A stretch of DNA of 59,909 nt, taken from Acidobacteriota bacterium (GTDB taxonomy: Bacteria > Acidobacteriota > Aminicenantia > UBA2199). Positions 17,201 through 35,400 of this stretch are shown one piece after another. Location: contig JAUPLE010000120.1 in assembly GCA_030837085.1 (NCBI GenBank), positions 1 to 59,909 on the forward strand, given 5' to 3'. Below the pieces are notes generated by a model. It searched no databases and was not told the DNA's origin. It was given only the letters and a program-made list of their open reading frames with translations. The position numbers and the translations under genes were made by a program. The stretch's first letter is position 1. Each line of letters begins with the position of its first letter.

Positions 17201-20200
17201 AATACAATGTCGATATCTTCGATGATGAAACCATAGTTCGGATGATTAATCATTATATCCGCCTGTTGGAAGAATCCCTCGGCCGCCCGGATGTTTGTAT
17301 CTCTACTCTGCCGATGCTAGACCTGGGGGAAATTAACCGTCTTTTGATAGAATGGAACGATACGGCAGTCGATTATCCCCGGGAGAAAACCATACACCAA
17401 TTATTCGCAGAACAGGCGGCAAGAACCCCCGACCGAATTGCGATTTTTAGCCACGGACGAACACGGACAAACACGGACAATAATATCACCTACAAGAAAT
17501 TGGATGTACAATCCAACCGGTTGGCCCATTTATTAATAGAAAAAGGCGTCCTGGCGGACAATATTATAGGTATCATGGCTGAACGGTCTATCGATCTCGT
17601 TATCGATATTATGGGCATATTGAAAGCCGGTGGCGCCTATTTACCCATCGATCCTTCATATCCCCAGGACCGAATCGATTATATGTTAGCAGACAGTGCG
17701 GTCAAAATTTTGATAATAAAATCCGAAATTCGAATATCGAAATACGAAACAAATCCAAATGACCAAAAAATAAATATCCAAAACAAAAACGTTGAAGACT
17801 TAATGGTTTTGGATTTTGAACATTTGGATTTTGAATTTGTTTCGAATTTCGAATATCGTGCTTCGAATTTGTTACCTGCAAATCTCGCCTATATCATCTA
17901 CACCTCCGGTTCTACTGGAAAACCCAAAGGTGTGACGGTAGAACATGGTTCTGCAGTAAATTTATTATATTCGCTGCAAAACGAATATCCCTTTGTTGAA
18001 TCGGATACTTACCTGTTAAAGACATCTTATACTTTCGATGTATCGGTAACAGAGTTATTTGGATGGTACATGGGGGGAGGGAAGTTGGCGATATTGGAAA
18101 AGAACGGCGAAAAAGATCCACAAGTAATATTCGATTGGATCGAACGGTATTTTGTCACACATATCAATTTTGTGCCGCCCATGTTTAATGCCTTTGCAAC
18201 CCAATTGGATAGTAAACATATAAAACGATTATCGAGTCTGAAGTATATTTTTTTAGCAGGTGAGGCGTTGTTACCGGAGTTTGTAAAAAATTTCCGCAGC
18301 TTGAATACAAGCGTCAGGTTGGAAAATATATATGGCCCAACAGAGAATTCGGTTTATTCCAGCAAGTATTCCTTAGCCGATTGGAGCGAAAGTCGAAGTG
18401 TCCCTATCGGTAGACCGTTACCCAATATAAAACTATTCATTTTGAATAAATATAATTATCTTCAGGCTATAGGAATATCCGGTGAGTTGTGCATCAGCGG
18501 ATTAGGATTGGCGCGGGGGTATTTAAACCGCCCGGAATTAACCGCTGAAAAGTTTGAACAGGATTTATGGGCTGAGCAGGATAACCAGGATGATAGAAAC
18601 AAAAGCTTTTGCGGGGGGGATAGGGGGGCGGTTTTCTCGAAAAAAGCCCCCCTGCTCTACCGCACCGGCGACCTGGCCAGGTGGTTACCGGATGGCAATA
18701 TCGAATTTTTAGGAAGATTAGATAACCAGGTAAAGATCAGGGGATTTCGCGTAGAACTGGGTGAGATCGAAAACCTATTACGAAAACATATTGGGATAAA
18801 AGGCACGGTTGCTGCAGTATTAAAGGGAGATGAAACCGGTGATAAAAGCCTGGCAGCATATTTTGTCTCAGATATAGAGCTTTCGGAAACTCAATTGAGA
18901 GAATATTTATTAAAAAATTTGCCGGACTATATGATACCATCGTACTTTGTGCGGTTGGAAAAGATTCCTTTAACCCCCACTGGAAAAGTTGACCGCAAGG
19001 CTTTACGCGGGCCAATAGTAAAAGAAATAGCCGATTATGCTGCCCCCCGGGAAGAAAAAGAAATGAAATTGGTGGAAATATGGGCCGAAATTTTAGGTAG
19101 AGATATATCTCAGAACCGGATAGGAATCGATGGAAATTTCTTCCAATTAGGGGGCCATTCGTTAAAAGCGATTTCCCTTGCTTCCAGGATATACAAAGAA
19201 TTTAATGTAAAAATTCCTTTGGGAGAGATATTTAAAAGACCCACCATCAGGGGGCTTTTCGATTATATCAAAGGGGCGGCTGGTGAACTGTACATCCGGA
19301 TAGAAGCGGCCGAAAAGAAGGAATACTATGTACTGTCATCGGCGCAGAAGCGATTGCATTTTTTGCAGCAAATGGACAACACCGGGACTGCGTATAATAT
19401 TTCAGCAGCATGGATACTGGAAGGAATTGTAGAGAAAGACAGGCTGGAACAATCCATCGTGAAACTCATCCAGAGACATGATAGTTTAAGAACATCTTTA
19501 CAAGTAATCGAAGACCACCCGGTGCAGCGAATCCAGGAAAATGTGGAATTTAAAATTGAGATATTAAGTGGTAGGGGCGAGGAAATTTTAAAAACTTTCA
19601 TTCGCCCTTTCTACTTGTCGAAAGCGCCGTTATTACGTGTGGGATTAGTTAAATTAGCAGAAAACAAGCATTTATTGATGGCGGACATGCATCACATAAT
19701 ATCGGACGGTATGTCTATGCAAATCCTGGTACAAGATTTTTCAGCCTTTTACATGGGGAAAGAATTGCCGGAGATAAAACTCCACTATAAGGATTACGCT
19801 GAATGGCAAAACCGGGAAAGATCGAGTAAAAAAATCCTCGAACAGAGTGAATACTGGAAAAAGGAATTTGAAGGAGAAATTCCTGTATTGGAGTTGCCGA
19901 CCGATTATGCGCGACCTGTTGTCCAGGCGTTTGCAGGAAACAGGATCAATTTTGAGCTAAACAGTGAAACTTCCTGCGCATTAAAGTCCATGGCATTGGA
20001 GGCAGAAGCGACGCTGTTTATTGTACTAAAGGCATTATATGCTATCTTTTTAGCTAAGTTAAGCGGCCAAGAAGATATCATAATCGGTTCTCCTGCGGCA
20101 GGGCGCAGGCATCATGATATAGAAATGATTATGGGCTTGTTTGTGAATACGCTGGCATTAAGAAGTTATCCTCGTGGAGAAAAGCAGTTTATGGAGTTCC

Positions 20201-32400: not shown

Positions 32401-35400
32401 TTTCGAATTAGGTGGGCACTCACTAAAAGCCACCCTCTTCATATCAATTGCTCACAAAGAACTGGATGTCCATATTCCCCTCCACGAATTTTTCAAAAAT
32501 TCGACAATAAAGAGATTGGCCCAATACATTCTGCATGAAACGCCAGATAAATTCATTGCCCTGGCCCCAGTAGAAAAAAAGGAATATTATGTCGCTTCTT
32601 CGGCCCAGAAGCGGTTGTACATATTGCAGAGGATGAATCCGGGAAGCACTTCTTACAATATGCCATTTACTCTGTCAATCGGAGGTAACGTAGACCGAAC
32701 ATACCTGGAACAAATCTTCAAAAAATTAATTGCCAGGCATGAGGCTTTAAGAACTTCTTTCATACTTATCGAGGACCAGCCATATCAAGAAGTACATGAC
32801 AATGTGGAATTTGAAATCGAGTATTATGACACGTCATCCATACGTAGCGTCAATGATTTTATACAGGTATTTGATTTAGCAAAGGCGCCGCTGCTTCGCG
32901 TTGGGTTAATGAAAACAGGAAATAAAAATTATCTTCTCATGTTGGATATGCATCATATTATAACGGACGGTATATCGCAAGATATAATGGAAAGAGATTT
33001 CATGGTGTTGTATTCAGGAGCGGAACTCCCTTCCCTTGGTCTTCAATTTAAAAATTATTCAGAGTGGGAGCAAAGCGAATTAAATAAGGAAAAAATGAAA
33101 TCCCAGGAAGATTTCTGGTTAAAAGAGTTTGCTGGAGAAATTCCTGTGTTGGATCTTCCCATGGATTTTCCGAGGCCGGTAATTCAAAGCTTTGAAGGAG
33201 ATTCCACCGGTTTTAATTTAACCCGGGAGGAGTTAAAAGCATTGTATGATACAATGCGTTCGCAAGGAGTTACCCTGTTTATATTATTGTTGTCTATATT
33301 CGATATTTTTATATCGAAAATAAGCGGGCAGGAGGACATTATAATTGGCGCTCCTATTGCAGGGCGAAGGCACATCGACCTGGAAAAAATAGTCGGGATG
33401 TTTGTTAATACTCTTGCTTTTCGAAATTATCCCTGCGCAGAAAAGACGTTTATAAATTTTCTAAGCGAGACAAAAAATAGGACGTTAAAAGCACTTGAAA
33501 ACCAGGATTACCCTTTTGAAAATCTTGCAGAAAAAGTTGTGAAACATCGGGATATGAGTCGTAATCCAATATTTGACGTAATGTTTGTTTTTCAAAATTT
33601 TATCACATTGCCAGGGGAAGTCTCGGAACAAGAAACCGGGGATTTGAGCATAAAACCCTATCATTATGAAAAAAAGACATCGAAATTCGATTTAACTCTG
33701 ATTGCCACTGAAATGGAAGATAAAATATCTTTTTCCTTCGAATACTGCCCAAGACTTTTTAGACAAGAAACCGTTTCACGATTTGTTCACTGCTTCAAAC
33801 AGATGGTATTGTCGGCAATCGAGGCCCCAGGGAAAAAGATAGCGGATATGGACATCGTGACCAGGGAAGAACAAAAACTCATATTATATTCGTTTAACCA
33901 TACTGAAGCGTCTTACCCGAAAGATAAGACCATTCATCGCTTATTTGAGGAACAGGTGGAAAGGGCAAGCGACAGGGTCGCTATAATCGATATAGGGCAT
34001 TTAACCTATCGCCAATTAAATGAGTATTCCAACCGGGTAGCCTTTTTTTTAAGAGAAAAAGGAGTCTTTCCCGACACTATTGTGGGTATTATGATAAAGC
34101 GTTCAGTGGATATGATTATAGGCGTCATGGGAATATTAAAAGCCGGCGGTGCGTATTTGCCAATTGATCCCAATTACCCGGAGCAGAGGATCGATTATAT
34201 GTTGAAAGACAGCGCAGCAAAAATTTCAATAAATAAATCCGAAATCCGAAATCCGAAACTCGAAAGTCACCGGCAGTGGCTTTCGAATTTCGAAATTAGT
34301 GCTTCGGATTTTAATTCCTCAAATCTCGCCTACCTCATTTACACTTCCGGTTCCACCGGTAGGCCCAAAGGGGTGATGGCGCGGCACCGCTCATTGGTAA
34401 ATGCCTGCACATGGCAAAGCACTTACTATAATATTAATGAAAGAGATCATATCACCCAGTATGCACCTTTCGTGTTCGATGCTTCTATATTGGAAATATT
34501 TCCCTGCTTGATCCAGGGCGCCTCATTGTACATAATCGATGAGGAGATAAAAATGAATCCCTATCAATTAAACCGTTATTATGAGAAGATGCATATAACC
34601 TTTAGTTTTTTGCCAACACAATTTTGCGAATTGTTTATGGAATTGGAGAATCATTCGCTTCGTGTATTGCTGGCCGCCGGCGACATGCTGCGGAAATTTA
34701 TCAAGAGAAATTATCGGCTGTACAACAACTATGGTCCTACAGAGAACACAGTCGTCACCACTTCCAGGTTGGTCGAAACCCAGAGCGATAACATTCCCAT
34801 TGGAACTCCCATTCAGAACAATCACGTGTACATTTTGGATAAGAATCATAGACACTTTCAGCCTATCGGTATCCCCGGGGAGTTGTGTATCGGTGGTGAA
34901 AGCTTATGCAGGGGCTATTTAAACCAACCGGAATTAACTGCAGAGAAATTTGACCGGGATTTATGGGGTGTGCAGGATAGTCAGGATAAGAAAAACAAAA
35001 GTTTTTTAGCGGATGAAGGGGGGCGATTTTTCAAAAAAGCCCCCCTACTCTACCGCACCGGTGACCTAGCTAGGTGGTTACCTGATGGAAATATCGAATT
35101 CCTGGGCCGCATCGATCACCAGGTGAAGATCAGGGGGTTCCGTATTGAGTTGGGTGAAATAGAAAATCGTTTATTAAAACATAACGATATAAAAGATGCG
35201 GTGGTAATAGATAGAAAAGATGAGCAAGGCGATAAATATTTAACCGCATACATTGTATCCGATAAACCAATCGAGGTCGCTGAATTAAGAAATATACTTT
35301 CTAAGTCTTTGCCGAATTATATGATCCCCTCCTTTTTTGTTCGGCTAGAAAAACTCCCCTTGTCCTTAACCGGCAAAATGGACCGAAAAGCATTACCTTC

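Follow-up and report, generated by a model that had tools for sequence, protein, structure and literature searches.

The DNA analysed here, referred to as the window, is the whole 59,909-nucleotide contig JAUPLE010000120.1 (assembly GCA_030837085.1) of an Acidobacteriota bacterium assigned to the lineage Aminicenantia. It harbors a hybrid nonribosomal peptide synthetase/polyketide synthase (NRPS/PKS) gene cluster in which three adenylation (A) domains, those of modules N2, N4 and N6, contain a palindromic element, designated PE-2, in the loop between the core motifs A2 and A3. Based on the repeat analyses, the distribution of the element and the properties of the loop, PE-2 in these NRPS genes probably represents tolerated selfish or neutral DNA of a dispersed palindromic repeat that resides in a hypervariable, predicted-disordered loop, in the manner of the Rickettsia palindromic elements (RPEs).

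PE-2 copies in modules N2, N4 and N6

All three copies are in frame and located between AYLPID (A2) and LAYxIYTSGxTGxPKG (A3). The elements with the arms delimited by inverted-repeat search, the identity shared by two of them (exact comparison) and the flanking landmarks (translation and motif search) are as follows.

17719..17872 (+): PE-2 of N2 (gene A), full-length palindromic element; arms 17719-17759 and 17830-17870, 41 nt, 78% complementary; peptide KSEIRISKYETNPNDQKINIQNKNVEDLMVLDFEHLDFEFVSNFEYRASNL
24244..24395 (+): PE-2 of N4 (gene A), full-length element; arms 24246-24284 and 24355-24393, 39 nt, 79% complementary; peptide KSEIRNPKLETNPNDKNLNDQNRNFGVPFVLNLDNLDFEFVSSFDMRISN
34235..34311 (+): PE-2 of N6 (gene B), derivative; arms 34235-34270 and 34276-34311, 36 nt, 78% complementary, 5-nt loop; peptide KSEIRNPKLESHRQWLSNFEISASDF
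24239..24274 (gene A, N4) and 34230..34265 (gene B, N6) (+): 36-nt identity ATAATAAATCCGAAATCCGAAATCCGAAACTCGAAA
17635..17652 (N2), 24160-24177 (N4), 34151-34168 (N6) (+): A2 core AYLPID, upstream landmark of the PE-2 loop
17899..17931 (N2), 24424-24456 (N4), 34340-34372 (N6) (+): A3 core YTSGSTGKPKG, downstream landmark

The first-pass annotation of this DNA had described CGAAAT-rich long inverted repeats in the A2-A3 loop of these modules, each with a right arm that is the imperfect reverse complement of the left one, and both statements agree with the elements listed, whose arms are 78-79% complementary at all three sites. Taken overall, arms measure 36-45 nt and are 73-79% complementary, and the elements comprise 152-154 nt (N2, N4) and 77 nt (N6), so that PE-2 has the size and palindromic structure of the RPE-like class (palindromic repeats of approximately 100-150 bp). 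The 17-nt sequence ATTTGTTTCGAGTTTCG of the N4 right arm, reported to be a perfect complement of part of the left arm, is the exact complement of CGAAACTCGAAACAAAT therein. However, the arm unit is not the 9-mer (aaatccgaa)n assumed in that annotation: the real unit is the heptamer AAATCCG, more generally CGAAAYN, and N4 and N6 carry the heptamers AAATCCG, AAATCCG, AAATCCG and AAACTCG head to tail. The identity between genes A and B, given there as 34 nt (24241-24274 and 34232-34265), is exact over these positions but runs 2 nt further to the left. As had also been remarked, the surrounding coding sequence has diverged, the coding DNA that flanks the N4 and N6 elements being only 56-60% identical.

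The N6 copy is a short PE-2 derivative lacking the palindrome centre. Its outer arms are retained and the centre of the element is exchanged for a G+C-rich mini-hairpin, GTCAC-CGGCA-GTGGC; the compact hairpin cgaaagtcac-cggca-gtggctttcg noticed at first pass is thus present, with one G-T. Secondary-structure prediction for single-stranded DNA, compared with dinucleotide shuffles, yielded z-scores of -6.6 (N2), -3.7 (N4) and -5.0 (N6). Furthermore, the arm motif AAATCCGAAATCCGAAA (up to two mismatches) occurs seven times in the window, in each case at the N2, N4 or N6 site; the shuffle mean was 0.1, and none of 100 shuffles reached seven. The open reading frames (ORFs) of gene A (14236-25845, 3869 aa) and gene B (25850-35731, 3293 aa) are uninterrupted through the PE-2 copies, and translation of PE-2 within them is deduced from the open frame.

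PE-2 as a dispersed repeat family

A genome collection was scanned for four consecutive CGAAAYN-type heptamers and metagenome contigs were scanned for the right-arm core ATTTTGAATTTGTTTCGNNTTTCG, each scan resulting in at least 120 loci. Among the 121 metagenome matches listed, 119 are located outside NRPS genes. The arm, which within the window matches at the three sites only, belongs to a family that was found widely in both collections, and the first-pass impression that the peptides look like translated repeat DNA is borne out, as the PE-2 arms and core recur as a dispersed repeat mainly outside long open frames. The consensus of about 150 nt is well conserved and consists of AAATCCG-type heptamers, CGAAACAAAT, A-rich units resembling CAAATGACCAAAA, a variable apex and a mirrored half with the end ...TTTCGGATTT. 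In terms of architecture, three to five outer CGAAAYN heptamers are followed by an invariant inner core, CGAAACAAAT...ATTTGTTTCG, the variable apex and the mirrored right arm. An nhmmer profile built from 55 metagenome copies outside NRPS genes, with the window excluded, matched the N2 (17719-17872) and N4 (24244-24395) elements end to end (E-values 3.3e-29 and 5e-29, respectively), and it detected near-full PE-2 copies in 43 of the genome loci among the matches listed. Since exact matches of unrelated contigs and reads extend from 17719 to 17870 and from 24244 onwards, with divergence beyond these positions, the boundaries of the element are fixed. In metagenomes holding the window, contig depth at PE-2 amounts to about 1300 compared with a baseline of about 27, that is, approximately fifty-fold.

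Titles of metagenome-assembled genome (MAG) records with PE-2 name Aminicenantes, Desulfobacterales, Syntrophaceae, Planctomycetia, Phycisphaerae, Gemmataceae, Verrucomicrobiae, Omnitrophota, Binatia, Saccharibacteria, Parcubacteria and others, corresponding by MAG label to the phyla Aminicenantes, Desulfobacterota, Planctomycetota, Verrucomicrobiota, Patescibacteria and others. The family is abundant in bacteria of sediment, groundwater and freshwater. Among the matches listed, the collected loci contain at least 130 full-length copies; a long open frame spans nine of these, and approximately 93% lie outside long open frames. Intergenic copies are situated between tandem (43), convergent (8) or divergent (7) genes, the remainder being close to contig ends or distant from ORFs. 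With respect to flanking genes, 17 copies have the same and 26 the opposite orientation, which represents no clear preference. Neighbors of PE-2 are ordinary housekeeping genes, for example those encoding ribosomal protein S7, elongation factors and biosynthetic enzymes, and three intergenic copies adjoin ribosomal protein S7 genes.

Concerning the mode of movement, PE-2 is a foldback element, so its ends are inverted repeats. At 95 aligned boundaries no direct repeats indicative of target-site duplication were visible, variable ends of the heptamer runs leaving room for duplications of TA/TAA size. Among the 129 nearest flanking ORFs (Pfam), no transposase, RAYT-type gene, parent insertion sequence or recurrent partner family stood out. 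Only four PE-2 matches were obtained among 2.9 million viral contigs, and phages are therefore not an obvious vehicle. A literature search with the PE-2 sequence strings and translated peptides returned no relevant description, and the family seems to be undescribed.

Conservation of the element was also evaluated with regard to a structured RNA. RNAalifold, applied to 62 copies, missed the long hairpin, as its apex varies too much for alignment, and mirror pairing was imposed by hand for the covariation test. In mirror register, 80.2% of cells pair as compared with 83.3% in shuffles that exchanged pairing partners among copies, and the covariation score was 0.076 versus 0.114 for shuffles, with 500 of 500 shuffles scoring at least as high. 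The conserved CGAAA/TTTCG blocks pair, and the variable heptamer triplets are mostly mismatched. RNA fold energy did not differ significantly between the strands (54 versus 43 copies, p = 0.09); asymmetry of the sequence as such is slight, with profile scores that are a median of 13 bits higher in one orientation. Rfam 15, searched at gathering and permissive thresholds, gave no match at the elements, the only sub-threshold hits being long plant microRNA hairpins. In summary of these tests, PE-2 looks like a DNA repeat maintained by its own sequence requirements and not like a structured RNA.

Some copies are combined with other small elements. A tiny G+C-rich hairpin (GTCCCCGNNGGGGAC; N6 form GTCACCGGCAGTGGC) follows CGAAA in the NRPS-borne PE-2 of N6 (34265-34280) and of a second contig (L125, 5006-5020), and the peptide SPRRG suggests the same mini-hairpin in the NRPSs P0001 and P0290, as judged on the peptide alone. 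This mini-hairpin may be a separate, very small inserted element. In the intergenic copies of L159 (approximately 4490-4535) and L191 (approximately 2171-2200), the PE-2 right arm is shortened by another repeat, CGACCCGCCACCGGCGGGT...GGAACCCAGCGTTGCTGGGTC, representing a nested insertion; small hairpin elements hence interrupt PE-2 in L159, L191 and L125. Moreover, a Saccharibacteria MAG (L087, 2900-6400) contains five to six PE-2 copies in about 3.5 kb, several of which are nested inside the loop of an outer, unrelated palindrome with the flanks ...cacgatgtgaaa and tcacatcat...; the copy in L120 is likewise nested.

In-frame copies in NRPS and other genes

The heptamer run is free of stop codons in all frames, and the same cyclic heptapeptide, KSEIRNP, is read from all three. 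About half of the intergenic copies possess at least one fully open frame. PE-2 frames being open, a copy of the right length leaves the ORF of its host open. Accordingly placed copies are not confined to NRPS genes: in-frame PE-2 was found in genes for a leucyl-tRNA synthetase (L213) and a TPR protein (L115) and in a 1555-aa open frame (L144). In the leucyl-tRNA synthetase, a minus-strand ORF (reverse-complement coordinates 4084-6913), PE-2 segments lie at approximately 8900-9100 and upstream thereof. The same ORF also contains three copies of another low-complexity insert, IGQLGDWA..KPNSLKTQQPKSPT, and this essential enzyme is thus full of translated repeats.

A protein search with the A2-to-A3 segment yielded four matches. 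Within NRPSs, PE-2 occupies the same loop in the same frame in at least ten further A domains (L123, L124, L125, L129, P0001, P0002, P0003, P0008, P0063, P0169). Variants lacking one arm or the centre are N6, P0026, P0169, P0288 and P0290; among them are half elements, with the right arm only in P0288 and P0026 and the left arm only in P0169.

Repeat-filled loops of the A domains

In 640 A domains from 150 large NRPSs, the median distance from A2 to A3 is 73 residues, and the site is variable in length among A domains. Many homologues possess a strand-helix-strand arrangement here. In the clade to which the cluster belongs (signature ERIDYMLKDS), the stretch is short and hypervariable, and its junctions are constant, the strand K(I/V)L(I/L)x immediately preceding and NSSNLAY immediately following. 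For the N4 A domain, an AlphaFold model reached a mean predicted local distance difference test (pLDDT) score of 84.4, with values below 50 for the PE-2-encoded residues; the A2-A3 loop is accordingly predicted to be a floppy, disordered surface loop of the N-terminal subdomain.

All eight elongation A domains of the cluster carry repeat sequence in the A2-A3 loop. Four families are represented, and seven of the loops are clearly palindromic: PE-2 (N2, N4, N6), GGTGAGA/TCTCACC heptamers (N3, N9), the GAAGAGC type (N5) and GGGGG...CCCCC (N7, N8). For the loops without PE-2, RNA folding was compared with mononucleotide shuffles.

48512..48661 (+): A2-A3 loop of N9, palindrome (AAGGTGAGA)n ... 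(TCTTACCTTC)n; z = -10.9
20995-21132: A2-A3 loop of N3, in-frame repeat, partial palindrome; z = -2.3
31088-31201: A2-A3 loop of N5, in-frame repeat, weak palindrome; z = -1.3
37618-37713: A2-A3 loop of N7, in-frame repeat; z = -5.1
42166-42243: A2-A3 loop of N8, in-frame repeat; z = -3.2

The palindrome of N5 is regarded as weak and that of N3 as only partial because of their fold z-scores. A second loop, between A6 and A7, contains repeat-like sequence in most A domains. Together, the A2-A3 and A6-A7 loops bracket the specificity-determining core.

18556..18657 (+): A6-A7 loop of N2, palindrome GGGGG..TTTTCTCGAAAAAA..CCCCC
15214-15330 (N1), 21793-21867 (N3), 34952-35050 (N6), 42904-42990 (N8): A6-A7 loops which, like that of N2, contain GGGGG..TTTTTCAAAAA..CCCCC (peptide GGxVFQKSP)
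25093-25137: A6-A7 loop of N4, (CATTCAT)n
31886-31930 (N5), 49334-49369 (N9): A6-A7 loops with short TATAAG-like repeats

Depth spikes and loose read ends at 18601-18654 (N2) and 25100-25133 (N4) show that at least two of the A6-A7 loop repeats are multi-copy in the metagenomes, bearing in mind that depth spikes at non-PE-2 loops could stem from other NRPS genes. The exact motifs of the N5, N7/N8, N9 and CATTCAT loop families were absent from 1.55 Mb of PE-2 loci.

The A domain of the loading module, which is not preceded by a condensation domain (start of gene A, 14236-14600), has a conventional long A2-A3 stretch and no palindrome there; its A6-A7 loop already contains the GGGGG..CCCCC element. 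Other giant NRPSs (P0198, P0207, P0169, P0146, P0147) possess the same set of loop families as the window, including an N9-type left arm joined to the PE-2-type right arm SDFGFRISDF, and truncated PE-2 copies. The peptide HHSSFIIHHS is encoded by an A6-A7 loop in the window and by A2-A3 loops in other giant NRPSs.

Age and relatedness of the NRPS copies

Most comparisons among the eight A domains give 54-69% identity for the coding DNA on either side of the loops, with a maximum of 76% (N8 and N9, upstream). For N2, N4 and N6 the flanks are 56-64% identical, and the N2 and N4 elements share 77% identity. N2, N4 and N6 are not mutual nearest paralogues in the upstream flank; in the downstream flank, the nearest paralogue of N6 is N2. 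The NRPS copies of PE-2 cluster tightly, at a mean distance of 0.156. For the intergenic copies found in an Aminicenantes MAG (L083), the distances from them are 0.12-0.18, compared with 0.29-0.31 for the family at large. Since these intergenic copies are as close to the NRPS copies as the latter are to one another, the NRPS copies belong to a subfamily of the host lineage. They exhibit no third-codon-position excess of variation and thus no indication that the peptide is under selection. The data fit repeated insertion at one site as well as a single insertion spread by A-domain recombination. Contigs that seemed to skip the loops (e.g., from 34215 to 34330) were considered as empty sites and rejected, because they originate from paralogous NRPS genes and match only briefly, at the conserved A2 and A3 cores.

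Mosaic structure of the N9 A domain

Module N9 (48323-49400) resembles N8 (41977-43060) up to A2 and from A7 onwards, and N2 (17515-18740) from A3 to A6. In a sliding window, identity between N9 and N2 amounts to 64-86% at the nucleotide level from A3 to A6 and to 77-86% just after A3. Within the inner segment (alignment columns of approximately 1400-2110), 228 of 270 informative sites are N2-like, as opposed to 220 of 542 outside (chi-square 140-177). Both switch points are located inside the two repeat-filled loops. Judged from these alignments, N9 is a recombinant in which the exchange lies within the A-core, with the C-A and A-sub sides retained. Because its switch points fall into these loops, the loop repeats may mark or promote exchange of the specificity core. 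Promotion might proceed via homology between shared repeats or via breaks induced by hairpins; alternatively, the repeats might simply build up at places that tolerate every junction. Natural A-core swaps of about this extent have been reported (A3-A9 in McyB/McyC; Baunach et al. 2021, PMC8097286), palindromes or repeats being unmentioned there.

Evaluation of possible explanations

The interpretation of PE-2 as tolerated DNA is as follows. PE-2 is not an NRPS feature; the copies in the cluster belong, in frame, to a non-autonomous palindromic repeat of about 150 bp that is dispersed elsewhere. At the A2-A3 site, the usual peripheral helix and strand are reduced in this clade to a short hypervariable loop, and the whole stretch is replaced by the element, which presumably arrived by insertion or replacement rather than originating in place. 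Translation would then produce a hydrophilic, predicted-disordered segment of about 50 residues on the surface of the N-terminal subdomain, probably neutral for the enzyme. Because an open-frame copy yields such a segment, the element could persist as tolerated selfish or neutral DNA, as Rickettsia palindromic elements do inside genes. Several observations weigh against this interpretation. All of the approximately 13 NRPS copies share orientation, frame and junctions, which fits a single ancestral insertion followed by recombination equally well. Some repeat is present at the loop in eight of eight elongation A domains, a pattern more regular than random insertion and tolerance predict. NRPS-copy hairpins are about as stable as intergenic ones, and since their stability is within the intergenic range, the NRPS copies are not visibly decaying. 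The phylum labels rest on MAG bins and may be partly wrong. Finally, the analysis revealed neither an empty site nor a target-site duplication nor a linked transposase, with no close orthologue of the cluster retrieved and few same-species reads; for this reason, mobility of PE-2 is inferred from its distribution only.

A role in recombination, compatible with a selfish origin, is a possible though unlikely explanation. The A2-A3 palindromes and A6-A7 repeats would be sites promoting exchange of the A3-A6 core between modules, acting as portable patches of homology (such as the 36 nt of N4 and N6) or through hairpin or cruciform breaks and gene conversion from a paralogous module. In E. coli, SbcCD cleaves long palindromes, and these stimulate recombination. 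The N9 mosaic with both switches inside colonised loops, an N4 inner segment (loop to A7) closer to N2 than to N3, the half elements described above and a left arm, KLLAVAN-EGEKVR..., which remains with its upstream flank and is joined to three different right halves (N9, P0207, P0198), one of them PE-2-like, point in the same direction, and the McyB/McyC swaps (PMC8097286) are natural precedents of similar extent. However, a single clean mosaic was resolved among eight deep paralogues, and the coincidence of junctions and repeats is no proof of cause, because selection alone would leave surviving junctions in a tolerant loop. Moreover, the N9 loop element is unlike that of either apparent parent, similarity of N2 and N9 from A3 to A6 could partly reflect a shared substrate, and breakage or conversion at the loops is without direct evidence. 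The extended form of this proposal, according to which the two repeat loops are built-in exchange points, operating via shared repeat homology or hairpin breaks repaired from paralogous modules, and the A3-A6 core is a cassette swappable between modules and clusters, is rather doubtful.

An RNA-level function, with per-module mRNA hairpins serving as translational pause sites for co-translational folding, as terminators conditional on lagging ribosomes or as RNase barriers in the very long transcript, is improbable. Hairpin-forming sequence at the same spot in most of the eight elongation A domains (z down to -10.9), NRPS copies whose stability is within the intergenic range, and intergenic copies that often lie between genes of one operon, e.g., the three beside ribosomal protein S7, are consistent with it. 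Evidence to the contrary consists of missing covariation with mostly unpaired variable triplets, fold energy and orientation without bias, the seven copies between divergent genes and the lack of an Rfam family; furthermore, a terminator scan flagged none of the elements, and most A domains elsewhere do without such a hairpin. It is very improbable that the peptide KSEIRNPKLETNPND...LDFEFVSxFxxRASNL serves this A-domain clade as a structural or docking segment under selection and that the palindrome is incidental. The peptide does occur in about 13 A domains of different contigs in the same frame and position, and its right-arm part VLNLDNL aligns with the ancestral strand IINLE. However, the same DNA is located to approximately 93% outside long open frames and in either orientation, codon positions 1 and 2 of the NRPS copies are not less diverse than position 3, unrelated sequences occupy the same place in sister modules, deletion forms lacking half the element persist, and the segment has pLDDT values below 50 in the model. 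Introduction of the repeats by metagenome misassembly can practically be dismissed. Short-read unitigs do break within the elements, but the ORFs are open through all of them, flank-element junctions recur in independent runs of several studies (X1 contigs 23023-24268 and 24252-25126, and also X3), and independent JGI, ENA and NCBI contigs carry the same element in the same loop.

Comparison with known repeat families and A-core exchange

Among known systems, RPEs are the closest functional class. PMC10969869, citing Ogata 2000, describes them as palindromic, about 150 bp in size and located in frame within many genes. PE-2 shares with them the many-copy palindrome of about 150 bp, the in-frame presence in unrelated genes and the lack of a transposase of its own (PMC10969869). 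A sizeable share of RPEs is translated in this way at fold-compatible places, and the length-variable loop with low pLDDT is a putative place of that kind for PE-2. In PE-2, the corresponding features are many dispersed copies at unrelated loci and in-frame copies in ORFs, whose translation follows from the open frame. In contrast, RPEs are described from Rickettsia and PE-2 occurs in MAGs of many phyla; the likeness refers to the functional class and membership in a sequence family is not claimed. Further differences are the tandem heptamers of the PE-2 arms, the location of most PE-2 copies outside genes, and the occurrence of NRPS copies at one homologous loop instead of scattered sites.

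Like MITEs (miniature transposable elements with inverted repeats), REP/BIME, ERIC, Correia and BOX elements (PMC10969869), PE-2 is small, non-coding, mostly intergenic, hairpin-forming, situated among housekeeping genes and occasionally intragenic and open. Unlike them, it has no visible target-site duplication, and neither a parent insertion sequence nor a RAYT-type gene was observed close by; it is a foldback throughout rather than being framed by two short terminal repeats. The compared families, in addition, are usually confined to one genus or family.

Cyanobacterial STRR sequences are heptanucleotide tandem repeats that are not known outside heterocystous species. The PE-2 unit differs from theirs, and no cyanobacterium is among the listed genome loci. 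Other heptanucleotide repeats are TAACTGA, present in Beggiatoaceae, Cyanobacteria and Bacteroidetes and thus across phyla by a mechanism that is not known (PMC4679880), as well as GGACCGG and MTYCTGA of Geobacter (PMC2700814). PE-2 resembles these families in its 7-nt unit and in short head-to-tail runs between and sometimes within genes. It differs by the unit CGAAAYN and by runs that form two mirror arms around a conserved unique core, resulting in a defined 150-bp element.

With regard to A-core exchange (Baunach et al. 2021, PMC8097286; Fewer et al. 2007, PMC2174460), replacement of A3 to A6 in N9 with retention of the C-A and A7-A10 sides corresponds to the published pattern. However, those papers place breakpoints at conserved core motifs and leave repeats unmentioned, whereas the N9 switches fall into repeat-filled hypervariable loops.

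With these results, the Rickettsia phenomenon of selfish palindromes in coding genes is extended to bacteria that are uncultured and free-living, and to biosynthetic enzymes of giant size. Conservation of PE-2 across phyla is unusually broad for a small bacterial repeat. What goes beyond the known picture is the regular colonisation of the loops and its coincidence with recombination switch points. The A2-A3 and A6-A7 sites represent two places of the A domain that naturally tolerate about 20-50 foreign residues and bracket the specificity pocket, which is useful for choosing fusion points in NRPS engineering. If the repeats help core exchange, they would provide a mechanism for A-core swapping, the breakpoint origin of which comparative studies leave unexplained; if the A3-A6 core is indeed a cassette, nonribosomal peptides would diversify with the assistance of a palindromic element that itself crosses phyla. 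For practical purposes, PE-2 breaks short-read NRPS assemblies and gives rise to spurious low-complexity "hypothetical proteins" in intergenic DNA.

Gene cluster context

The hybrid NRPS/PKS cluster consists of five co-directional genes (14236-25845, 25850-35731, 35728-43704, 43685-50101 and 50098-55596) and encodes nine A domains (Pfam AMP-binding) together with condensation, carrier, KS, AT, KR and TE domains. The nearest homologues of its A domains originate from MAGs of Kapabacteria, Aminicenantes, Acidobacteriota and Ignavibacteria and from Firmicutes rather than from cyanobacteria, the top match being 66% identical. One protein flanking the cluster shares at least 90% identity with a Candidatus Aminicenantes MAG protein, and exact copies of a flanking protein were found only on Logan contigs from freshwater metagenome runs. 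A cyanobacterial origin of the cluster with STRR/SDR repeats, considered on account of 42% G+C and the heptamers, was rejected because the flanking proteins and best homologues indicate Aminicenantes and other uncultured lineages, the contig probably being that of a Candidatus Aminicenantes MAG; cyanobacteria are also missing among the listed genome loci. Upstream of the cluster, the region 6096-9300 encodes two neighboring GWxTD-domain proteins and TPR proteins. Downstream, a DUF5916 protein is encoded which has a close match in an Aminicenantes MAG.

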